This document shows positions 3,622-34,146 of a stretch of 34,146 nucleotides of DNA, in pieces. Source of the DNA: Planctomycetales bacterium (GTDB lineage: Bacteria > Planctomycetota > Planctomycetia > Pirellulales > Pirellulaceae); NCBI GenBank assembly GCA_020426845.1, contig JAGQPF010000123.1, forward strand, positions 1-34,146. Reading direction: 5' to 3'. Every line of letters begins with the position of its first letter. Positions within the stretch are counted from its first letter, which is position 1. Made by a program: the position numbers and the translations under genes. The notes under the pieces are model-generated. The model did no database searches and was not told the origin of the DNA. It saw only the letters and a program-made list of their open reading frames with translations.

Positions 3622-3903
3622 AGCGACTCCTTGTGCGATTGTCGTGACGAGAACGAAAGTCAGAGAGAATTCGGCTCGGCCACGGATTTATTTGCGGGAA
3701 TCGGCCACGATCCGCAAGGCGAGGGGCCCGCGCGAGCTCGCCCCCGCGACCGAACGTCCTGGAACGGGCTGGCATCACGGCAGAAATCATAGCGAACATC
3801 GCCGATTTCGGCCACACAAACGCCACGGCGCGCCTTCTGTAGGGCTGGTGCGATTGAATTGAATGTCTACCGGCGAGAGCAACGCACCTCGGGCTCGCGC
3901 CCG

Positions 3904-3937
3904 AGGCTAACAACTGTCGCCCCTGCCGGGGCTGGAG
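3904..3937. repeat. Family-C REP-like element, single copy (GGCTAACaaCTGTCGCCCCTGCCGGGGC)
   Basis: It matches the GGCTA(A/C)CGTCTGTCGCCCCTnnnGGGGC core seen at 22170-23000, 26996-27318 and 27938-27975, and contains the hairpin gcccct-gcc-ggggc. Confidence 0.5.
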
Positions 3938-4106
3938 CGTTTGAATTGATCTCAAACCTGCCTTGCGGCGTCTGCGCCACTTCCCTACGATCCCGCACCG
4001 ATACGCGGCGCAGTCTGCGCACTCGGCCCTGACCGCGCTGAACTTGAACGAACTTCATGGGCGGGGTCGGCGTGTTTCGTGACGTGAGGATTGGGAGCTA
4101 ACGAAA

Positions 4107-7084: not shown

Positions 7085-7305
7085 TTGCGCGCAAACCCCA
7101 ATCATCACAGGCTGGCAGCCTGTGCCACGTTGTGCGCAAACCCCCAATCGTCACAGGCTGGCAGCCTGTGCCACGTTGCGCGCAAACCCCAATCGTCACA
7201 GGCTGGCAGCCTGTGCCACGTTGCGCGCAACCCCCAATCATCACAGGCTGGCAGCCTGTGCCACGTTGCGTGCAACCCAAATCATCACAGGCTGAGCGGC
7301 CGGCC
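7085..7305. repeat. Family-A tandem array: five copies of a 45-bp unit, each carrying the 17-bp perfect palindrome ACAGGCTGGCAGCCTGT
   Basis: Copies of cacaggctggcagcctgtgccacgttgcgcgcaaaccccaatcgt begin at about 7106, 7152, 7197, 7242 and 7286. The last copy is degenerate. Confidence 0.85.
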
Positions 7306-10509: not shown

Positions 10510-10695
10510 CCTCGGCCGGCGCAAGTCGGCTGCGCAGTGCCGCACGGGCGAGGGCGCCCATGCTACGCGCGAAGCGTGCCTTCGCCGGCGCAAGTGGGCT
10601 GCGCAATGCCGCACGGGCGAGGGCGCCCATGCTACGCGCGAAGCGTGCCTTGGCCGGCGCAAGTGGGCTGCGCAGTGCCGCACGGGGCCTTGCTC
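10510..10695. repeat. Family-B tandem repeat: about 2.7 copies of an approximately 61-bp unit (GGCCGGCGCAAGTGGGCTGCGCAGTGCCGCACGGGCGAGGGCGCCCATGCTACGCGCGAAGCGTGCCTT)
   Basis: The direct repetition is visible in the sequence. It lies in the convergent intergenic region between the protease gene and ettA. A related copy at 14263-14380 is in the inverted orientation. Confidence 0.8.
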
Positions 10696-14262: not shown

Positions 14263-14380
14263 GACGCCCGTGACTTCGTGCCCTTCGCGTACCATGGGCG
14301 TCTCGCCCGTGACTTCGTGCCCTTCGCGTAGCATGGGCGTCTTGAGCGAGGACGCGCAAGGACGCCCATGCTACGGACGA
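14263..14380. repeat. Family-B related repeats: two copies of a 36-bp unit (CCCGTGACTTCGTGCCCTTCGCGTAnCATGGGCGTCT) plus an inverted partial copy
   Basis: The direct repeat is followed by gacgcccatgctacgg, the reverse complement of the unit's end. It lies in the divergent guaA/surE promoter region. Confidence 0.75.
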
Positions 14381-19397: not shown

Positions 19398-21614
19398 ATG
19401 ATCCTCGCGCGCTGGCTGTCCTTGGCTCTCCTTCTTGCCTTCGTCGCCGAGTGTGGCGCCGAAGTGGGGCAGAAGATCGACGACTTTGAACTGCGGGACT
19501 TTCGGGGCAAGACGTGGTCGTTGCGAGAGTCGGGCGACCGCACCATCGTGCTGGCGTTTCTCGGCACCGAATGCCCGCTGGTGCAGTTCTACGCCAAACG
19601 GCTCGAAGAATTGCAAGCCGAGTACGCGGAGCGAGGCGTCGTGGTGGTTGGCATCGACTCCAACCTGCAGGACTCGTTGGCCGAGCTGGCGTCGTTCGCG
19701 CGCCGCCACGATCTCACCTACCCGCTGCTCAAGGACCCCGGCAACCGCGTGGCCGATCAGTTGGGCGCCGAGCGCACGCCCGAAGTGTTTCTGCTCGATC
19801 GTCAACGACACGTTCGCTATCGCGGGCGAATCGACGATCAGTACACCTACGGCATCGCTCGCACCAAGCCCACTCAGCGTTATCTGCGCGACGCGATCGA
19901 AGCCTTGCTCGGCAACCGCCCGGTGGCCTTGGCGGAAACCGAGACCGTGGGCTGTCACATCGGTCGTGTGCTGACGCCGCAAACCGACAGTGACGTCACC
20001 TACTCGAATCAGATCGCCCGCATCTTTCAGCAGCGGTGCGTCGAATGCCACCGCCCCGGCGAGATCGCTCCGTTCCCGCTGACCACTTACGAGGAGACTT
20101 TGGGCTGGGCCGAGATGATCGACGAGGTCACCTCCGAGCGACGCATGCCGCCATGGCACGCCGAGCCGGGTCATCAACAATATGCCAACGACGCCCACTT
20201 GAGCGACGAGGAGCTCCGGACCATTCGAAAATGGGTCGCCGCCGGCGCTCCCGAAGGCGATCCCAAGGAGCTGCCTCAGCCAGTTCAATTCACCGAAGGC
20301 TGGCGAATCGGCGAGCCCGATCGCATCGTTTGGATGTCGGAGAAGTCGTTTTCCGTGCCGGCCGAGGGAGAGGTCAAGTACCAATACTTCACGGTCGACC
20401 CGAAGTTCGAAACCGACATGTGGGTGCAGGCGGCGGAATGCCGACCGGGCAATCGAGCGGTCGTGCATCACATTATCGTCGGCATCAAATCCCCGAATGA
20501 GGATCAAGACGGCGTGCACGGCGTTCGCTCGGAATGGCTCGCTGCCACCGCGCCGGGCGCCCAGCCGATGATTTTGCCATCAGGACAAGCGAAGCTCATT
20601 CCTGCCCGATCGAAGCTCGTCTTTCAAATGCACTACACGCCCAACGGCACCAAGCAGACCGATCGCAGTTCCATCGGCTTGCGTTTCATCGAGGCGTCAG
20701 CGGTGAAACATCGCGTGGCCACCCACAAGGCGATCAACACCCGATTCCGCATTCCCCCGCACGCGGCAAATCACAAGGAAACCACTCGGCCGTACACTTT
20801 CGGCTCCGCCGGCTACTTGGTGTCGATGTTTCCCCACATGCATCTACGCGGCAAGTCGTTCACTTATGTGGCCCACTTCCCCGATGGACGCCCCGATCAA
20901 ACTCTGCTGCATGTGCCGCGCTATGACTTCAATTGGCAGAACGGCTACCTGTTGAAAGAGCCGATGCTGATGCCCAAAGGGACTCAGATCGTCTGTGACG
21001 CGGTCTTCGACAACTCGGAGGACAACCTGGCCAATCCCGATCCCAAACAGACCGTGAGCTGGGGAGACCAGACCGACGAGGAGATGATGATCGGCTACTT
21101 CGACATCTACGACGCGGAAGACGCCAGCCGCACCCAAGAGTTCATCGGCCGACTCGACCAACTCCAGCGGAAGTCGCTCGCCGACGCAGCTCGCGGTTCG
21201 TTGCATGCCGAGCGACAATTCACGCGCTTTGCCCAACAGCTTCGACTGGCCATGCCACAGGTCGATCGCGTCGATTGGACCGTCCATGAACAGCGCAAGT
21301 TGAAGGTGCTGCTGGTGGCCCAAGACGCCTCCACCAGGCGAACGCTGCTCGGGCAATTGGTCACCAGCGACGCCGAGATGGCGTTGCCGACCGTGGCAAG
21401 CCAAACCGAGCCGGTGGTGCACGCGAACCTTGCCAGCGTTCCCGGCAAGGACTTTGCGCACATGCGCAGACTGATGGCCTCCAGCGCGCATTTCCCGATC
21501 GAGTTGGATGGCAAGCGTGGCGTGATCAGCTTCTGGAGCACGGAGCGCAACGCGTTTCCCGATTCGGCGGTGAAGCTGCTGCAAGAGCTGGCTCCGATCA
21601 TGGCGACTCCGTGA
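19398..21614 (+). CDS. secreted redox fusion protein: thioredoxin-fold (redoxin/AhpC-TSA-like, single Cys) + c-type cytochrome (CxxCH) + copper type-II ascorbate-dependent monooxygenase-like (PHM/DBH-like) domain + C-terminal extension
   Basis: The signal peptide is MILARWLSLALLLAFVAEC. Redox motifs include FLGTECPLV and the heme site CVECH. The His/Met ligand pattern is VVHHIIVG … QMHYTPNG … FPHMHLRG … DEEMMIGYF, with spacings like the PHM CuH/CuM sites. The stop overlaps the mug start (GTGA). Confidence 0.8.
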   Translation: MILARWLSLALLLAFVAECGAEVGQKIDDFELRDFRGKTWSLRESGDRTIVLAFLGTECPLVQFYAKRLEELQAEYAERGVVVVGIDSNLQDSLAELASFARRHDLTYPLLKDPGNRVADQLGAERTPEVFLLDRQRHVRYRGRIDDQYTYGIARTKPTQRYLRDAIEALLGNRPVALAETETVGCHIGRVLTPQTDSDVTYSNQIARIFQQRCVECHRPGEIAPFPLTTYEETLGWAEMIDEVTSERRMPPWHAEPGHQQYANDAHLSDEELRTIRKWVAAGAPEGDPKELPQPVQFTEGWRIGEPDRIVWMSEKSFSVPAEGEVKYQYFTVDPKFETDMWVQAAECRPGNRAVVHHIIVGIKSPNEDQDGVHGVRSEWLAATAPGAQPMILPSGQAKLIPARSKLVFQMHYTPNGTKQTDRSSIGLRFIEASAVKHRVATHKAINTRFRIPPHAANHKETTRPYTFGSAGYLVSMFPHMHLRGKSFTYVAHFPDGRPDQTLLHVPRYDFNWQNGYLLKEPMLMPKGTQIVCDAVFDNSEDNLANPDPKQTVSWGDQTDEEMMIGYFDIYDAEDASRTQEFIGRLDQLQRKSLADAARGSLHAERQFTRFAQQLRLAMPQVDRVDWTVHEQRKLKVLLVAQDASTRRTLLGQLVTSDAEMALPTVASQTEPVVHANLASVPGKDFAHMRRLMASSAHFPIELDGKRGVISFWSTERNAFPDSAVKLLQELAPIMATP

Positions 21615-22228
21615 GAGCCGTCGCGTCACGCCGGCCGACTCGCGCCGAACTCGAAGCGGCTCGGGACAAGCTGGTTCCCGACGTGATTGCGGACGATCTC
21701 GAGTTGCTGTTTGTCGGCATCAACCCCAGCTTGTATTCCGCCGCGCTCGGTCAACACTTCGCCCGCCCCGGCAATCGATTCTGGCCCGCGTTGCACGGAG
21801 CCGGCTTCACACCGCGACTCTGGTCGCCCCCCGAGCAAGCGAATCTGGTGGAGCAGGGCATCGGGATCACGAACGTGGTTGCACGAGCCACCGCGCGAGC
21901 CGATGAGCTATCCCGCGACGAACTTGTGCAAGGCATGCAGCGTCTGACGGCGCTGGCAGAACAACATCGAATCGTGCACATCGCGTTTCTGGGCATCACG
22001 GCATATCGCACCGGGTGCGACCGCCAACAGGCCGTCATCGGGCCGCAGGCAGAGCGTATCGGCAACGCCGCCGTCAGTGTGCTGCCCAATCCCAGCGGGC
22101 TCAACGCCCATTATCAGCTGGCCGATCATATCGCGTTGCTCAAGGCGCTTCGACAGCGGATCCGAGGCTCGAGGGCGCGAGCCTGTGGAGTCGCATGCAC
22201 AGGCCCCGCCAAGGGCGACAGACGGTAG
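21611..22228 (+). CDS. mug: G/U mismatch-specific uracil-DNA glycosylase (Mug/TDG, UDG family 2)
   Basis: LLFVGINPSLYSAALGQHFARPGNRFW matches the Mug active-site region (GINPG…PANRFW), and NPSGLN lies near the C-terminus. It is a GTG start. The last approximately 12 codons run into the repeat array, so the stop is uncertain. Confidence 0.75.
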   Translation: MRAVASRRPTRAELEAARDKLVPDVIADDLELLFVGINPSLYSAALGQHFARPGNRFWPALHGAGFTPRLWSPPEQANLVEQGIGITNVVARATARADELSRDELVQGMQRLTALAEQHRIVHIAFLGITAYRTGCDRQQAVIGPQAERIGNAAVSVLPNPSGLNAHYQLADHIALLKALRQRIRGSRARACGVACTGPAKGDRR

Positions 22229-22690
22229 CCCCAGGCGCAAGCCGGCGCAAGCCCGTGGAGTGGCGCGGGCCGCGCGCAAAAAGCCCCGGAGGGCCGGAGG
22301 GGCGACAGACGGTAGCCGTGGGCGCAAGCCGGCGCAAGCCCAGGGAATGAGGCGCGGGCCGCGCGCAAAAAGCCCCGGAGGGGCGACAGACGGTAGCCTT
22401 GGGCGCAAGCCCAAGGAATGAGGCGCGGGCCGCGCGCAAAAAGCCCAGGAGGGGCGACAGACGTTTGCCCTGGGCGCGAGCCGGCGCAAGCCCAGGGAAT
22501 GAGGCCCGGGCCGCGCGCAAAAAGCCCCGGAGGGGCGACAGACGGTAGCCTTGGGCGCAAGCCCAAGGAATGAGGCGCGGGCCGCGCGCAAAAAGCCCCG
22601 GAGGGGCGACAGACGGTAGCCCTGGGCGTAAGCCGGCGTAAGCCCAGGGAATGAGGCGCGCAAGCCGCGCAGCGCCGGCGGCTCGCGCGG
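22170..22690. repeat. Family-C tandem array, orientation 1: about 6 copies of a 66-78-bp unit (GCGCGGGCCGCGCGCAAAAAGCCCCGGAGGGGCGACAGACGGTAGCCnnGGGCGCAAGCC[GGCGCAAGCC]CAGGGAATGAG)
   Basis: The repetition is visible in the sequence. Each unit holds two palindromes (gcgcgg-g-ccgcgc; gcccc-gga-ggggc) flanked by an A5 run, which reads as a hairpin + U5 on the minus strand. Peptides repeat in the shadow ORFs on both strands. Confidence 0.9.
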
Positions 22691-22735
22691 TTCAATGAAC
22701 ACGTCGCCCCGCAAGGCAGAGCCAACTCGCACAAC

Positions 22736-23000
22736 TCCACGGGCTTGCGCCCGTGGCTACCTTCTGTCGCCCCTTGCGGGGCTGGTGCGCGTGGTGTGCG
22801 CGACTCCACGGGCTTGCGCCCGTGGCTACCTTCTGTCGCCCCTTGCGGGGCTGGTGCGCGTGGCGTGCGCGACTCCACGGGCTTGCGCCCGTGGCTACCT
22901 TCTGTCGCCCCTTGCGGGGCCTGGTGCGCGTGGTGTGCGCGACTCCACGGGCTTACGCCCGTGGCTACCTTCTGTCGCCCCTTGCGGGGCCGGTGCGCAT
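22736..23000. repeat. Family-C tandem array, inverted orientation: 4 copies of a 69-bp unit (CACGGGCTTGCGCCCGTGGCTACCTTCTGTCGCCCCTTGCGGGGCTGGTGCGCGTGGTGTGCGCGACTC)
   Basis: The units are roughly the reverse complement of those in 22170-22690 and lie about 45 bp from them. This creates an approximately 800-bp quasi-palindromic region between mug and the propeller gene. Confidence 0.9.
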
Positions 23001-23083
23001 CGTTGCTACTGACTTGCATCCGCCGCAGGCTCGGCGGAAAATACAAATCCAAGCAATTTCCCTCCATTCGCTCAGGCCTACCC

Positions 23084-24307
23084 ATGTCGCGACGCGCACT
23101 CTTTGCCACCTCACTTGCCCTGCTGGCGTCCGGTCTCCTTCATTCCTCACACGTCAGTGGCGAGCAGCCGTGGACGCAGTGGCGTGGCCCGCATGGCGAC
23201 GGGCACTCGGACGCCCCGGCGCTGCTTCGTTGGAATGACGAGAACGTGACCTGGAAGACGGCATTGCCGGGGCTCGGCCAATCGTCGCCGGTCGTTTGGG
23301 GCGACCGTATCTTCTTGACCGGCGCCGAGAACGATGGCGCCAAGCGGATCGTGTTCTGCGTCTCGCGGAAAAACGGCAAACTGCTCTGGCAGCAGACCGC
23401 CTGGACGGGCGACGCGGAGAAGACGCACCAGATGAATCGTTGGGCGTCCGCGACGTGCGCCACCGACGGCGAGCGGGTCGTGGCCTTCTTTGGCCGCGGC
23501 GGGCTGCACTGTTATTCGATGGACGGCACGCGGCTCTGGTCGCGCGAGCTGGGCGATTTTGAAAACGTCTGGGGCACTGCCGCGTCGCCGATCATCGCGG
23601 GCGAGCTCGTGATTCAAAATTGTGACGCCGAGGACAGCGGGTCATGCCTGGTCGCCCTGAACAAGGAGACGGGGGCCGAGGTGTGGCGCACGGCCCGCGA
23701 GCAACTGCGTGGCTGGTCAACGCCGGTCGTGGTGGCCAACGGTGACAAGCAAGAGCTGGTGCTCAACGGCGAGACCGGAGTGTTTGGCTACGACTTGGCC
23801 AGCGGCGCCCAACTCTGGTTCAGCAAGGGCGACACCGGCCGCGGCACCCCCACCGTGACGCCGACGGGCGACGGGCTGCTGGTCGTCGTCAACGGACGGC
23901 CTGGCGACATGTTCGCCGTGCAAGCGGACGGCAAGGAAGTCTGGCGGACCAAGCGCAAAGGCGGCCGCGACTTGCCCTCGCCGATCGTGCTCGACGGCCA
24001 GGTGATCGTCGTCAGCTTGCGCCCCGGCACCGCGACCAGCTACATCGCCTCCAGTGGCAAGGAGACCGCTCGGCTGCGGCTGGACGGCAGCTTCTCCGCG
24101 TCGCCGATCGCCGTCTCGGGACACGCGATCATCCCCAACGAAGATGGCTTGGTCTATGTGCTCAAGGCCGGCGACCAGGGCGTGGAGGTGGTTTCGAAGA
24201 ACAAGATCACCTTGCGAGCGGAAAACGAGATCTTCCGCGCTTGCGTGACGCCGCTGGAGGACGGACTGCTGCTGCGGTCCGACCAGACGCTGTACCTGAT
24301 CCAGTAA
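23084..24307 (+). CDS. secreted PQQ-like beta-propeller repeat protein (BamB-like fold)
   Basis: The signal peptide is MSRRALFATSLALLASGLL. Repeated …DG.(L/V)W… blades (GKLLWQQT, GTRLWSREL, GAEVWRT, GAQLWFS, GKEVWRT) are present. The listed 520-aa ORF is over-extended through the repeat array. Confidence 0.8.
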   Translation: MSRRALFATSLALLASGLLHSSHVSGEQPWTQWRGPHGDGHSDAPALLRWNDENVTWKTALPGLGQSSPVVWGDRIFLTGAENDGAKRIVFCVSRKNGKLLWQQTAWTGDAEKTHQMNRWASATCATDGERVVAFFGRGGLHCYSMDGTRLWSRELGDFENVWGTAASPIIAGELVIQNCDAEDSGSCLVALNKETGAEVWRTAREQLRGWSTPVVVANGDKQELVLNGETGVFGYDLASGAQLWFSKGDTGRGTPTVTPTGDGLLVVVNGRPGDMFAVQADGKEVWRTKRKGGRDLPSPIVLDGQVIVVSLRPGTATSYIASSGKETARLRLDGSFSASPIAVSGHAIIPNEDGLVYVLKAGDQGVEVVSKNKITLRAENEIFRACVTPLEDGLLLRSDQTLYLIQ

Positions 24308-26730: not shown

Positions 26731-26995
26731 GACAAGCTCCTCACCTAAAGGCCCAAGTGACGTGGAATCCTTCGGATGACGGGAAAAGGGGTTCCCCGGA
26801 TGGAGAAGGTGCTTTTCCTCGTCTTGTTAGAAAACAAGCAATTCTCGCGCCGGCAGGCAATGTCGAAGCGACCGTTGGAACCCGGCCTTGCAGTCAACAC
26901 GTTGAAGGTGGATTCGATTGCCAGTTGGCGCCTAGACGTCGCGAAGCGTCACGGCAGAACACAACCGCGCTGTGCGTTCACGCACGCCACGGCTC

Positions 26996-27318
26996 CACGG
27001 GCTCGCGCCCGTGGCTAACGTCTGTCGCCCCTCCGGGGCTTTTTAGCGTAATGAACTTGAGCGAAGTTCGACCGGTTTGCGCCACGTTTCCACAGGCGCG
27101 CTCGCAGATTCACGGGCGCGCACGCCGATCCACGGGCTCACGCCCGTGGCTAACGTCTGTCGCCCTTGGGGGCTTTTTCAGCGTTATGAACTTGAGCGAA
27201 GTTCGACCGGTTTGCGCCGCATTTCCACGGGCGCGCACGCAGATACATGGGCGCGCACGCCACGCGCACAAGCCCCGAAGGGGCGACAGACGTTAGCCAC
27301 GGGCGCGAGCGCGTGGAA
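26996..27318. repeat. Family-C composite repeats: two copies of an approximately 135-bp unit plus one inverted core copy
   Basis: cacgggctcgcgcccgtggctaacgtctgtcgcccctccggggctttttagcgtaatgaacttgagcgaagttcgaccggtttgcgcc… repeats at 26996 and 27131. The inverted core agccccgaaggggcgacagacgttagccacgggcgcgagcgcgtgg is at 27270-27318. Each unit has a hairpin + T5. Confidence 0.85.
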
Positions 27319-27398: not shown

Positions 27399-27875
27399 TT
27401 AGCCGCCCGTCAGGGAGGACATGAGAAATCCCAGGCTGACCCAGCCTCCTTGTCCGATCCCCGCGAGCGCGAACACCATCTGCCCGACGGCGGCGACAGC
27501 GAGTGTCATTTGGCCCAGAGCTAACGGCGCGACGGCGAGCTGCCCGATGGCAAGAATTCGCCCGGTGGCAAGTTGGCCGATGCCGATATAGCCCTGTGCC
27601 ATCTGGCCAATCGCAATTCCGCCGACGGCGAACTGGCCGATCGCGACCACGCCTCGAGCCACTTCTCGCTTGCCCGTTTCGGGATTAATCCCCCGAATGA
27701 TCTGCAACATCGGCAGACCGAAAAGAGAAGTTTCGGAGGTGTACTCCCGGTAGGTCGCCCCATCGTAGTGCACGAACTCGCGAATGGTGCCGTGGGCTGT
27801 GCGCGTCACCGTAAATTTGGGATGCGAGACCAGATACGACTGCTTGACGTGCGAATTGCTGCGTTTGACGACCAT
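27399..27875 (-). CDS. hypothetical protein with a C-terminal hydrophobic heptad (A/G)IGQ(L/M/F)A repeat domain
   Basis: It probably starts at MVVKRSN (AGGAGAA RBS); the listed ORF begins 50 codons upstream inside repeat DNA. The C-terminal 90 aa read AIGQFAVGGIAIGQMAQGYIGIGQLATGRILAIGQLAVAPLALGQMTLAVAAVGQMVFALAGIGQGG. Confidence 0.6.
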   Translation of the reverse strand: MVVKRSNSHVKQSYLVSHPKFTVTRTAHGTIREFVHYDGATYREYTSETSLFGLPMLQIIRGINPETGKREVARGVVAIGQFAVGGIAIGQMAQGYIGIGQLATGRILAIGQLAVAPLALGQMTLAVAAVGQMVFALAGIGQGGWVSLGFLMSSLTGG

Positions 27876-27937
27876 AAGTTCTCCTGTGGCGAGCCAACTT
27901 CGCCAAGCTGCTTTCCCGCTTTTCCCCGAGCTCGCGC

Positions 27938-27975
27938 TCGAGGCTAACGTCTGTCGCCCCTGCAGGGGCTTTGCT
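27938..27975. repeat. Family-C REP-like element, single copy (GGCTAACGTCTGTCGCCCCTGCAGGGGC)
   Basis: It has the same core as the arrays. It is followed by G-tracts. Confidence 0.6.
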
Positions 27976-31913: not shown

Positions 31914-34146
31914 CGTGAGTCAACAACCGTTCGACGATCTCTTTGCCGACAGCCCGACCAATCGGAACACCTCCTCCAATCGGAACAATCAGCAACCCAA
32001 CAGCCCCACCTTAAAGGTCGACTCCCTCGAGCCTCGCGTGCTGCTCTCGGGGACGTGCCTCCCCGGCGCTGACTTGGACTATGACGTCGAACCGCAAGGC
32101 GAGGTGTTCGATGGCGCCGCATACGGAGACGATGCCGACTTCCTGGGACACGACGGACACGTCGCCGACAGTGCCCACCACGGAGGTTATGGCAAGCACG
32201 ATGGTGGCGGACATCATGACTTGGGCCTGAACGACTATGACGACGGCGGCCACGATCAGCCCGTGGCCAAACACGGCGGACATGATGGCGGCGACGGACA
32301 CAAAGTCGACGATGGCGGCCATCACGCCAATGCGAAGCAGTACGGCGGCGATAGCCACGACAGCCACGACAAGCCGCATCAAGAAGTGCATGCCAAGTAC
32401 GGCGGTGACGACGGCGATGGCGACGGCCACGACAGCGGCAAACATCAGCCGGTCGCACAGAAATATGACGATCATGGCGATGATGGCGCCAACGAGAGTC
32501 ACGAAAAGCCCCACCAAGAGGCGCATGCGAAGTATGGACACGGTGGCGGCGATGACGGTGGCGACCATGACAAGCCCCACCAAGGAGTGCATGCCAAGCA
32601 CGGCAGTGACGACGGCGGCGGCGATGACCATGACGGCGGCGGCAAATATCAGCCGGTCGAGCAGAAGCATGATGACGGCGGCGACCACGATAAGCCCCAC
32701 CAGGAAGTGCATGCCAAGTACGACGGTGGCGACGACGGTGGCGATGACCATGACGGCGGCGACAAATATCAGCCGGTCGAGCAGAAGCATGATGACGGCG
32801 GCGACCACGACAAGCCCGAGGTGCATGCCAAGTACGCTGGCACCGACGACGGTGGCGACGACAATGACGGCGGCGACAAATATCAGCCGGTCGAACAGAA
32901 GCATGATGACGGCGGCGACCACGACAAGCCCGAGGTGCATGCTAAGTACGCCGGTACCGACGACGGTGGCGATGGCCATGACGGCGGCGACAAGTATCAG
33001 CCGGTCGAGCAGAAGCATGATGACGGCGGCGACCATGACAAGCCCCACCAAGAAGTGCATGCCAAGTACGACAGTGGCGACGACGGTGGCGATGACCATG
33101 ACGGCGGCGACAAATATCAGCCGGTCGAGCAGAAGCATGACGACGGTGGCGATGGCCATGGCGGCGGCGACAAGTATCAGCCGCTCGAGCAGAAGCATGA
33201 TGACGACTTCAAAGTCAGTCACGACAAGTCGCAGCAAGAAGCCAATTACGGCGGCGGTGACGACAGTCCGTCGGATGCGACTTGGGCCGCCGACGTTAGC
33301 ACCACTGACGACTCAACCGACTCAGGCACTGTAGCGACAGAGGGAACCGACGACGGCAACCCGGGATCCAGTAACGACACCTACGGCGGAGATTCGCAAT
33401 CGCAATCTTCCTGGGTGTCCGATCATTCGGCAGCAGACGACACGGACAACGGCGAGGACACTCCTGCCGGGTATGGTGTCACGATCACCGAATCAGGCCC
33501 CTCGACTCCCGCGACGGACAGTTCGACAACGAGCAATGCTGAAGGTTACGGAACCGACGATTCAAAGGTGACCAACCACAGTGATGAAGTTAACGGCTCC
33601 GACGACAACGGCTGGGCAGCTGCCACCGACGACAGTAGCAGCGGAACCAATGACACCACCTACGGTTCCGGCGACACGGAAGTGATCGACGAAGGCGGCG
33701 ATGACAGCTCCGACGACACCGATTGGACGGTGGACGACATCGCTGACACCGACGATGGTGGAATCGACGACTCCGGAGGTTCCACCTACGGCGCCGGCGA
33801 CTCGGACGTGACCAACGACGATGGCGACGACACCGGTTGGACAGCGGACAACGTCGTCGCTGACACTGACGACAGCGGCAGCGACGCTGGCGAAACGGAC
33901 GTGACCAACGACACTAGTTGGACTGCGGACGACTCGGCTGGCACCGACGACAGCGGAAACTCCGACTCCGGTGATTCGACTTACGGCGCCGGCGAAACGG
34001 ACGTGACCAACGACGTCGGCGACGACAGCTCCGACGACACCGGCTGGACCGCGGACGACTCGGCTAGCACCGACGACACCGACGACGGTGGAAGCGATGA
34101 CTCCGGTGATTCGACCTATGGCGCCGGCGACTCGGACGTGACCAAC
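31914..34146 (+). CDS. partial giant repetitive protein: LEPR-XLL-like N-terminal motif, His/Asp-rich 37-40-aa tandem repeats, then acidic Asp/Thr/Ser/Gly repeats; 3' end beyond the window
   Basis: One frame stays open from the GTG at 31914 (in-frame TGA at 31884) to the window end (about 744 codons). The N-terminus carries …TLKVDSLEPRVLLSGT…. About 8 repeats of DKYQPVEQKHDDGGDHDKPHQEVHAKYDGGDDGGDDHDGG follow, then GWTADDSAGTDDSGNSDSGDSTYGAGETDVTND-type repeats. The listed ORFs 32011..33237(-) and 32237..33334(+) are shadow frames of these repeats. Confidence 0.75.
32290..33240 (+). repeat. Intragenic tandem coding repeats (111-120-nt units, about 8 copies, the last five more than 90% identical at DNA level)
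   Basis: GACAA(A/G)TATCAGCCGGTCGAGCAGAAGCATGATGACGGCGGCGACCACGACAAGCCC… recurs at about 32644, 32764, 32875, 32989, 33109 and 33169. Confidence 0.85.

Follow-up and report, generated by a model that had tools for sequence, protein, structure and literature searches.

A gene-less pair of facing hairpin-repeat arrays beside mug in a planctomycete contig is probably a cluster of a REP-type DNA element that Rfam lists as Acido-Lenti-1

What is the pair of facing, GC-rich hairpin arrays that lies between mug and a beta-propeller gene in a Planctomycetales bacterium, and how did it arise? The window analyzed here is an entire 34,146-bp contig of a metagenome-assembled genome (MAG) titled 'Planctomycetales bacterium', and the analysis of the locus was confined to that contig. 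An earlier sequence-only reading took the arrays for a mosaic of the repetitive extragenic palindrome (REP) type. We find that the repeat unit is probably a REP/REPtron-type DNA element and that the locus is probably a gene-less inverted doublet of this element, with arms tandemly expanded to six copies on the left and four on the right. The motif is already in Rfam, and taken alone the locus in the window is unremarkable except for its size, a large cluster of that element. As we discuss below, multiple observations support this assignment, including homology to a known family, a fixed geometry around a transposase gene in other genomes, and strong covariation.

Both arrays were found at roughly the coordinates noted earlier (Table 1), by Tandem Repeats Finder and by our own covariance model, R1, which was run with filters off and resolved the individual copies. 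Tandem Repeats Finder gave the left array (22294-22660) a period of 71 nt (score 524) or a higher-order period of 152 nt (93% matches, score 678) and the right array (22734-22998) a period of 69 nt, repeated 3.8 times (96% matches, score 500). Motif copies in the left array are spaced by 87, 84, 81, 71, and 81 nt, and the 152-nt period reflects the combination of long (81-87 nt) and short (71 nt) units; in the right array, the spacing is 69, 69, and 70 nt. Left units are 71-87 nt long rather than the 66-78 nt first proposed. The innermost copies are 83 nt apart, not ~45 bp, and comparison with inverted doublets and gene-bearing loci elsewhere places this 83-nt centre, which contains a degenerate inner module (ACGTCGCCCCGCAAGGCAG, about 22703-22722), at the position occupied by a transposase gene in related loci.

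On the motif strand, the core of each unit spans 46 nt and consists of hairpin 1, a linker, and hairpin 2. Hairpin 1 has 8 bp, a CC...GG foot, and a four-base UNRC loop (for example, CCUUGGGC-UUGC-GCCCAAGG). The conserved 12-nt linker is CUAnCnUCUGUC, given with the Rfam core as GGCUAnCnUCUGUCG. Hairpin 2 has 5 bp (GCCCC-loop-GGGGC) and is followed by a 22-26-nt spacer that holds a small GC hairpin. Both palindromes noted earlier (GCGCGG-G-CCGCGC, GCCCC-GGA-GGGGC) are present, as is the A5 run, but the main hairpin, hairpin 1 (CCTTGGGC-TTGC-GCCCAAGG on the minus strand), had been missed. An A5/T5 run had also been assigned to every unit; T5 follows hairpin 2 in left-array units only, and each right-array unit carries a 22-nt GC-hairpin spacer without a T run. 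The GGA in the plus-strand hairpin loop led us to consider a CsrA/RsmZ-like sponge, which we rejected because the loop varies within the family (TCC, TGC, TAC, GTT, TTGC).

The unit proved to be a known one. A scan of the window at Rfam gathering thresholds gave ten hits of 37.4-52.5 bits, all to RF01687 (Acido-Lenti-1), a 46-nt model with a gathering score of 37 bits that is typed 'Gene; sRNA' and described as a small RNA (sRNA) of unknown function. Seven of these hits lie in the arrays, where three left-array copies scored 52.5, 52.5, and 44.6 bits; the remaining three array copies were detected only by R1. The core proposed earlier, GGCTA(A/C)C(G/T)TCTGTCGCCCC (also written GGCTANCNTCTGTCGCCCC), occurs 15 times in the window compared to an expectation of 0.16 from 100 dinucleotide shuffles, none of which gave 15 matches. 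The 15 motif copies occupy five sites in 34 kb, ten in the arrays and five dispersed, and all lie outside Pfam-supported coding sequence except where the array enters the tail of Mug.

The element is widespread as well as dispersed within this contig, in line with the sequence-only reading. A core-pattern scan of contigs representing one genome per species gave at least 76 loci, and the figures that follow for motif-selected loci are among the matches listed. Judged by MAG record titles, which are subject to errors of binning, these loci come from at least eight phyla; the groups listed are Planctomycetota (including Phycisphaerae, Gemmataceae, and Tepidisphaeraceae), Acidobacteriota, Chloroflexota, Verrucomicrobiota, Bacteroidales, Victivallales, Sumerlaeia, and Thermodesulfobacteriota. 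Single MAGs carry the motif on multiple separate contigs. Viral contigs contained no match to the core, and we therefore set aside a phage origin. R1 found 155 copies in the 76 loci listed and, although this model was trained on pattern-selected sequences, the independent Rfam model agrees with it. Both hairpins and the linker are complete at about 70 of the 76 loci, and compensatory changes are abundant in hairpin 1. In a lineage-specific variant seen in Gemmataceae (L015, L022, L040, L050, L063) and Phycisphaerae (L023, L026, L059, L070), hairpin 1 is swapped for a longer hairpin with an insertion, which lengthens the model hits to 63-76 nt but leaves the linker and hairpin 2 as they are elsewhere.

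Copies of the motif are arranged in a characteristic way. At 20 or more of the loci listed, a minus-strand copy is followed ~100-150 nt on by a plus-strand copy, and many motif-selected loci carry inverted doublets that measure ~200-300 nt and have a short centre. Each doublet is one composite palindrome, which runs from outer hairpin 2' through linker', hairpin 1', ~22 nt, and inner hairpin 2' plus GACAGA to the short centre and then from TCUGUC plus inner hairpin 2 through ~22 nt, hairpin 1, and linker to outer hairpin 2. A doublet arm is in the same register as the ~69-nt tandem unit of the window. Adjacent copies on opposite strands are divergent rather than convergent in 29 vs 7 cases at motif-selected loci and in 42 vs 9 cases at loci selected by the gene described next.

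When open reading frames (ORFs) neighbouring the motif-selected loci were clustered without prior assumptions, the top recurrent neighbour among the matches listed was an ORF of ~150 amino acids that lies exactly between a minus and a plus copy at five loci from different lineages. Its product matches Pfam PF01797 (Y1_Tnp; E 5e-31 to 7e-23) and passes the NCBIfam model transpos_IS200 (NF033573) (86.8 and 63.2 bits; cutoff, 55). In alignment A4, the proteins are 145-150 residues long, and D54-H55-x-H57, W95-Q96, Y115, Q119, H122, and H123 are invariant. The nearest solved structures are those of the ISDra2 and IS608 TnpA enzymes (PDB 2xm3, 2a6m). A RAYT-type gene (RAYT, REP-associated tyrosine transposase), which the sequence-only reading had suggested seeking, thus sits beside the motif in other genomes.

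We then reversed the test, using 80 metagenome loci picked by the protein alone (52-68% identity). R1 found 222 motif copies in these loci, and the Rfam model found 60 flanking copies of Acido-Lenti-1 in 20 of them and no other family. Among 64 loci with at least 150 nt on both sides of the gene, 45 had a minus copy upstream and a plus copy downstream, 15 had a copy on one side, and four had neither, several of these with weak model hits. Counted by side, a minus copy lay upstream at 57 of 69 testable loci and a plus copy downstream at 63 of 75, and only the wrong orientation was present at one locus upstream and two downstream. The median distance between motif and gene was 46 nt upstream and 51 nt downstream, and the inner hairpin-2 modules adjoin the start and stop codons. 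At four loci (L131, L146, L095, L112; ~3975-4003), the inner hairpin AGCCCC-GGA-GGGGC lies 6-8 nt before the tnpA ATG and contains GGAGG, so that the likely tnpA ribosome-binding site would be locked in a hairpin. This arrangement resembles the sequestration of the ribosome-binding site that provides translational control in IS200.

Expanded arms are found around the gene too. At L095, on a 245-kb contig, eight to nine minus and eight plus tandem copies surround it; L094 has seven copies; and two and three are present at L049, which comes from a Planctomycetaceae MAG. Head-to-head arrays are thus the normal geometry of this family, and those of the window, which lack the gene, are among its larger examples. 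The protein family comprises 4985 clusters at 90% identity (E <= 1e-20), nearly all of 150 residues and each on 1-4 contigs, and its members are named 'RayT' by JGI and 'IS200/IS605 family transposase' by NCBI. Many contigs with the RayT-like gene are only ~1-3 kb long. The element evidently breaks short-read assemblies, and copy numbers in MAGs are probably underestimated.

Which Y1 enzyme is this? TnpAY1 subclass 1.2 is defined by DH[IV]H, WQ, and YIKNQKEHH (Y---Q--HH) motifs, a median length of 148 residues, and low copy number, and it is found mainly in Cyanobacteria and Bacteroidetes (Quentin et al. 2018, PMC6006769, Table 1). By signature motifs (DH[LVT]H, WQ, YIxNQxxHH) and length alone, the proteins described here appear subclass-1.2-like, and their occurrence on 1-4 contigs per cluster fits low copy number. 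They differ in that L, V, or T can stand in the centre of the HUH motif, slightly broader than I/V; in that most loci have inverted Acido-Lenti-1 flanks; and in their sources, which are MAGs of Acidobacteriota, Planctomycetota, and Chloroflexota and many soil and peat metagenomes. The literature searched contained no report of REP-like partners for subclass 1.2 or of a link to Acido-Lenti-1. Class 3 TnpAY1 enzymes, which occur in Planctomycetes and Acidobacteria, do not fit in motifs (NHVH, YV..EQ) or in length (178 residues), and most of the acidobacterial TIRYTs of Di Nocera 2013 (PMC3733652) sit in the 238-residue subclass 2.1 according to Quentin et al.

Is the element RNA or DNA? If the units were sRNA genes, then transcription of each array, a battery of such genes in tandem, would proceed from the centre outward, with left units ending at their own hairpin + U5. 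An RNA gene model had been named earlier as a competing explanation, and RF01687 formally supplies one, with matches above its gathering score. Four hairpin + T5 sites, compared to 1.0 expected in a terminator scan, follow left-array copies on the motif strand, and the linker is highly conserved across phyla, as would suit a protein-bound RNA. Both helices also covary strongly. In hairpin 1 of the motif-selected loci, 97.1% of cells are paired and 90 cells show double changes; in hairpins 1 and 2 of an independent set, 98.2% of cells are paired and double changes are seen in 12 of 13 pairs; and in neither case did any of 500 shuffles reach the observed value. Covariation, however, cannot tell an RNA hairpin from one in single-stranded DNA (ssDNA).

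Other evidence makes sRNA genes an unlikely explanation. First, the stereotyped inverted placement around the Y1 gene at 45 of 64 independent loci has no sRNA rationale. Second, the helices are ~97-99% Watson-Crick, and the Rfam sense strand has fewer G-U than A-C cells, 5 vs 19 and 4 vs 12 in two sets (9 vs 31 in total), or 5 vs 15 (p = 0.04) and 4 vs 10 (p = 0.18) when counted by locus. If wobble is tolerated on any strand, it would be on the complement, which has (N)TAG before hairpin 1 as in canonical REPs, but this point is suggestive only. Third, a T run is missing from right-array copies and from most foreign ones, the motif may point either way with respect to adjacent genes, and no sigma-70-like promoter was found in 21900-23200, although the scan covers planctomycete promoters poorly. 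Finally, Acido-Lenti-1 was described from Acidobacteria and Lentisphaerae, sometimes near group II introns, with 89 representatives and no expression evidence (Weinberg et al. 2010, PMC2864571). Among the papers listed as naming it in the literature searched, none has a transposase theme in title or abstract.

Our copies share with the Rfam family the 46-nt core, two hairpins, the GGCUA...UGUCG linker, and closely spaced instances in one seed genome, where several RF01687 seed members lie ~200 nt apart on one contig. The family is typed as a trans-acting sRNA of Acidobacteria and Lentisphaerae, whereas here it occurs in Planctomycetales and in MAGs of at least eight phyla. Its tandem and inverted arrays and its position on both sides of a Y1 transposase gene suggest an element acting at the DNA level. 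Fixed inverted placement around an ssDNA transposase gene, Watson-Crick helices, and the scarcity of G-U lead us to favour DNA, and RF01687 is most likely the REP-type DNA element itself rather than an RNA gene. Folding each unit, as had been suggested, was less informative. Single-unit RNA folds have energies near those of shuffled sequences (z 0 to -2.8), and structure is therefore argued from covariation of the hairpins and not from energy.

How closely does the element resemble known REP systems? REP, REPIN, and REPtron systems with a RAYT (TnpA-REP) were reportedly described by Nunvar in 2010, Bertels and Rainey in 2011, and Ton-Hoang in 2012. Our comparison drew on Di Nocera 2013 (PMC3733652) and Quentin 2018 (PMC6006769). 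Shared properties include short, high-copy, mostly intergenic palindromes; inverted doublets with a short spacer; a single small HUH/Y1 gene between inverted copies (in relatives, the window being without the gene); clusters, tandem reiteration, and occasional overlap of gene ends; and (N)TAG by the hairpin foot. By contrast, the enzyme is IS200-like class 1, resembling subclass 1.2, rather than a class-2 RAYT; NTAG takes the place of GT[AG]G at the foot; each unit combines two hairpins with a 12-nt linker that is conserved; the sequence is conserved across phyla instead of being species-specific; and the arrays are long and direct rather than alternating. REPINs likewise are inverted doublets able to form a long hairpin; we counted at least 21 such doublets at foreign loci, and in the window the arms are multiplied.

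The sequence-only assignment to a REP-type repeat rather than a CRISPR array is borne out, because the material between copies is itself repeated, at 93-96%, leaving no unique spacers; no cas-like Pfam hits were found among the window ORFs scanned. The term bacterial interspersed mosaic element (BIME), also used in that reading, does not apply in its strict E. coli sense, as copies within each array are direct tandem repeats in one orientation and do not alternate. Elements of the IS200/IS605 group (IS608, ISDra2) share the transposase fold and family, and their hairpins adjoin the gene ends, but their end hairpins are direct and on the same strand, and the whole element is multi-copy. In the family described here, by comparison, the flanking copies face in opposite directions, the gene has a low copy number while the short element is the multi-copy part, and tnpB was not seen. 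No link between the GTAG-20/21/22 REPs of R. baltica and our motif appears in the supplement searched.

Several observations weigh against assignment to a REP/REPtron-type element. The canonical GT[AG]G foot is present in only 35-50% of copies and the consensus is NTAG: the complement of the hairpin-1 3' flank reads GTAG in 50% and 35% of copies in two sets, the rest being TTAG, ATAG, and CTAG, and in the window the foot is GTAG in 9/15 and TTAG in 5/15. The ~150-residue protein fails the NCBIfam REP_Tyr_transpos model (NF047646), with 23.1 bits against a cutoff of 80, and subclass 1.2 is listed as 'REP: no' and without insertion sequence (IS) properties (PMC6006769). A tblastn search of the 34-kb window (E <= 1) detected neither a transposase gene nor a remnant of one. 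Counted by locus, the asymmetry in wobble pairs is modest. A 17-nt core that is near-exact across phyla is unusual for REPs, and a conserved RNA-protein interaction would explain it equally well. Lastly, tandem expansion could be plain replication slippage, without any enzyme.

How, then, might a gene-less doublet have become two arrays? Identity is 93-96% within each array, whereas array-to-array complementarity is only 72-78% over 53-66 nt, or 85-91% over a 33-47-nt core (repeat finder). From this difference and the dimeric 152-nt period of the left array, we infer that the two arms grew separately and recently by tandem duplication, rather than as one large inverted duplication. The TnpA enzymes of IS608 and ISDra2 and TnpA-REP of E. 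coli cleave and rejoin DNA next to hairpins on single strands. Taking this chemistry as the model (PMC6006769), a Y1 enzyme would recognise the folded hairpins on ssDNA, probably at the replication fork, and cut and rejoin beside them, which would copy doublets to new sites and spread the element. In many bacteria, two inverted arms with hairpin 1 inward enclose the ~150-residue HUH/Y1 gene, and gene-less doublets are scattered elsewhere, as in the REPtron/REPIN relationship. With the flanks inverted, the gene itself would not be mobilised, which fits its low copy number. Successive direct copies would offer same-strand sites for excision and reinsertion, and units of ~69-90 nt would be gained or lost either in this way or by slippage from one ~20-nt TCUGUC + hairpin-2 module to another. 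Mobilisation by the transposase would thus be part of the REP/REPtron model, by analogy with these enzymes.

The arrays could alternatively be a local satellite or minisatellite, produced by slippage and unequal recombination of GC-rich hairpin sequence and resembling Y1-flanking elements only incidentally. The contrast between within-array and between-array identity, the 152-nt period, unit variants between assemblies, and the presence of several other tandem repeats in the contig all suit such an origin. Slippage, however, accounts for expansion and not for origin or dispersal. Array and dispersed copies are homologous, the 46-nt motif being present in 15 copies at five sites of the contig with scores up to 72 bits, and the same motif recurs in dozens of unrelated genomes with a fixed geometry around the Y1 gene. 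We consider a purely local satellite decidedly improbable.

A miniature inverted-repeat transposable element (MITE) of a DDE-type transposon, whose inverted copies would be terminal inverted repeats (TIRs) moved by cut-and-paste with target-site duplications, might explain the many ~200-300-nt inverted doublets with a short centre, and Di Nocera et al. (2013, PMC3733652) describe TIRtrons, tyrosine transposase genes flanked by TIRs that make up families of repeats. The one gene repeatedly enclosed encodes an HUH/Y1 and not a DDE enzyme, though, and direct tandem 'TIR' arrays are not a MITE feature, which makes this origin very unlikely. Equally remote is an assembly artefact, a collapsed or chimeric repeat join in the MAG contig: many transposase contigs are only 1-3 kb and two other public assemblies with an identical mug gene (ENA contigs L157 and L158, ~1 kb) end within the array, at window positions ~22384 and ~22403, one with a different, shorter second unit, but both repeat the mug-to-array junction and, over it and the first two units, are 99.9% and 97.4% identical to the window, unrelated long contigs such as that of L095 (245 kb) also have head-to-head arrays, and intact genes lie on both sides. 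The array is real, and its exact unit count is uncertain, as the other assemblies stop within it.

Having favoured a REP/REPtron-type element, we return to its setting. The long fold-back proposed earlier is energetically possible for ssDNA. When 22160-23010 (851 nt) was folded as ssDNA, the left array paired with the right at -340.5 kcal/mol (z = -13.8, 20 shuffles). Extrusion of a cruciform from duplex DNA is doubtful, given imperfect arms and the 83-nt centre. The array had also been thought to have replaced the native 3' end of mug. Instead, the Mug/UDG domain is intact, and homologues align through ...ALRQRI (residue 184, nt 22162; alignment A5). Codons 185-205 and the stop (22163-22228) lie in repeat-derived DNA and specify a 21-residue tail without counterpart in homologues, the start of which is translated from a putative outermost remnant (22163-22196) that the covariance model did not pick up. 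The mug ORF has therefore been lengthened by the array and its native end not replaced. Its product is 100% identical to a protein named 'mismatch-specific DNA-glycosylase [Planctomycetales bacterium]'.

Besides the added tail and stop, the locus would place a run of stable hairpins in the 3' region of mug. Effects on the host are speculative and might include those of 3' hairpins on mug mRNA, antisense termination at the four hairpin + U5 sites, and, at gene-bearing loci, masking of the ribosome-binding site by the GGAGG-bearing hairpin. Hairpin + U5 modules do not face antisense to both flanking genes, as had been supposed: they are limited to four left units, on the minus strand, whereas right-array units, which lack a T run, are oriented in the sense direction.

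Table 1. Coordinates of the arrays, flanking genes, and other motif copies in the window
Feature	Position	Strand	Evidence
mug, G:U mismatch DNA glycosylase	21611-22228	+	Pfam PF03167 E 4e-19, aa 24-170
Degenerate outermost remnant (tentative), resembles reverse complement of hairpin-1 half (GGGCGCGAGCCTGTGGAGT)	22163-22196	-	read from sequence
Left array, six direct motif copies	22197-22651	-	R1 28-72 bits; Tandem Repeats Finder
Left-array copies	22197-22247, 22277-22334, 22366-22418, 22437-22499, 22518-22570, 22589-22651	-	
Terminator-like hairpin GCCCCTCCGGGGC + TTTTT	22372-22384	-	terminator scan
Other hairpin + T5 sites	22524-22536, 22595-22607, 22284-22299	-	terminator scan
Centre between innermost - and + copies	22652-22734 (83 nt)	.	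sequence
Right array, four direct motif copies	22735-22996	+	R1 57-61 bits; Rfam 40.2, 40.2, 37.4 bits
Right-array copies	22735-22788, 22804-22857, 22873-22926, 22943-22996	+	
PQQ/BamB-like beta-propeller gene, downstream and outside the element	23084-24307	+	Pfam PF13360 E 8e-30
Dispersed single copy	3885-3938	+	R1 56.5 bits; Rfam 42.5 bits
Three-copy cluster (26993-27318), first copy	26993-27045	+	R1 70.8 bits; Rfam 49.2 bits
Three-copy cluster, second copy	27128-27179	+	R1 57.9 bits; Rfam 39.7 bits
Three-copy cluster, third copy	27266-27318	-	R1 64.6 bits; Rfam 40.8 bits
Dispersed single copy, upstream of sulfatase gene	27922-27975	+	R1 57.9 bits; exact core match

Near the dispersed copies, 20-nt CACGGGCGCGCACGC-type repeats (27089-27262) interleave with the three Acido-Lenti-1 copies of the cluster to give a 135-nt higher-order repeat present twice (26994-27261). 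The copy at 27922-27975 also lies directly upstream of the start of a 159-residue minus-strand ORF (27399-27878), which has a GGAGAA ribosome-binding site, a repetitive, Gly/Ala-rich C-terminal half, and no Pfam match.

The contig contains other repeats. A second tandem family at 10515-10686 (69 nt, 2.5 copies) has GTAG + CATGGGCG-CCCT-CGCCCGTG on the minus strand, and a related repeat at 14265-14342 (39 nt, two copies) has GTAC + CATGGGCG-TCT-CGCCCGTG on the plus strand; both have the look of canonical GTAG-tagged REPs and are possibly a separate REP family in the same genome. Between genes for a flavin adenine dinucleotide (FAD) oxidoreductase and a trypsin-like protease, a 45-nt unit is repeated 4.7 times with 93% matches (7085-7294); it carries a hairpin (CACAGGCTG-GCAGCCTGTG) and a palindrome (TTGCGCGCAA) and has no Rfam hit at the gathering threshold. 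Finally, a 120-nt unit repeated 5.1 times with 88% matches (32551-33152) lies beneath two long ORFs without Pfam hits, 32011-33237 (-) and 32237-33334 (+), and its minus-strand translation is a very hydrophobic repeat.

What appears new here, within the literature searched, is a probable REPtron variant, an IS200-like, subclass-1.2-like enzyme with a bipartite target conserved across phyla. More tentatively, we propose that Acido-Lenti-1 may be not an sRNA but the DNA partner of TnpAY1 subclass 1.2. Such a system would be REPtron-like, with a ~46-nt bipartite target conserved nearly base for base across at least eight phyla and with head-to-head tandem arrays that grew as the enzyme excised ~69-90-nt units and reinserted them between successive hairpin-2 modules, and it would be intermediate between true IS200 elements and domesticated RAYTs. 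An orphan Rfam family that has lacked a function since 2010 would thereby gain a concrete, testable identity, and a Y1 subclass described without IS ends or REPs would gain its missing DNA substrate. Near-identity across phyla is unusual for a REP-type element and may reflect horizontal spread or strong constraint by the enzyme. For genome annotation, pipelines will mark copies of the element as sRNA genes, and the element can add tails to proteins, as it has to Mug.

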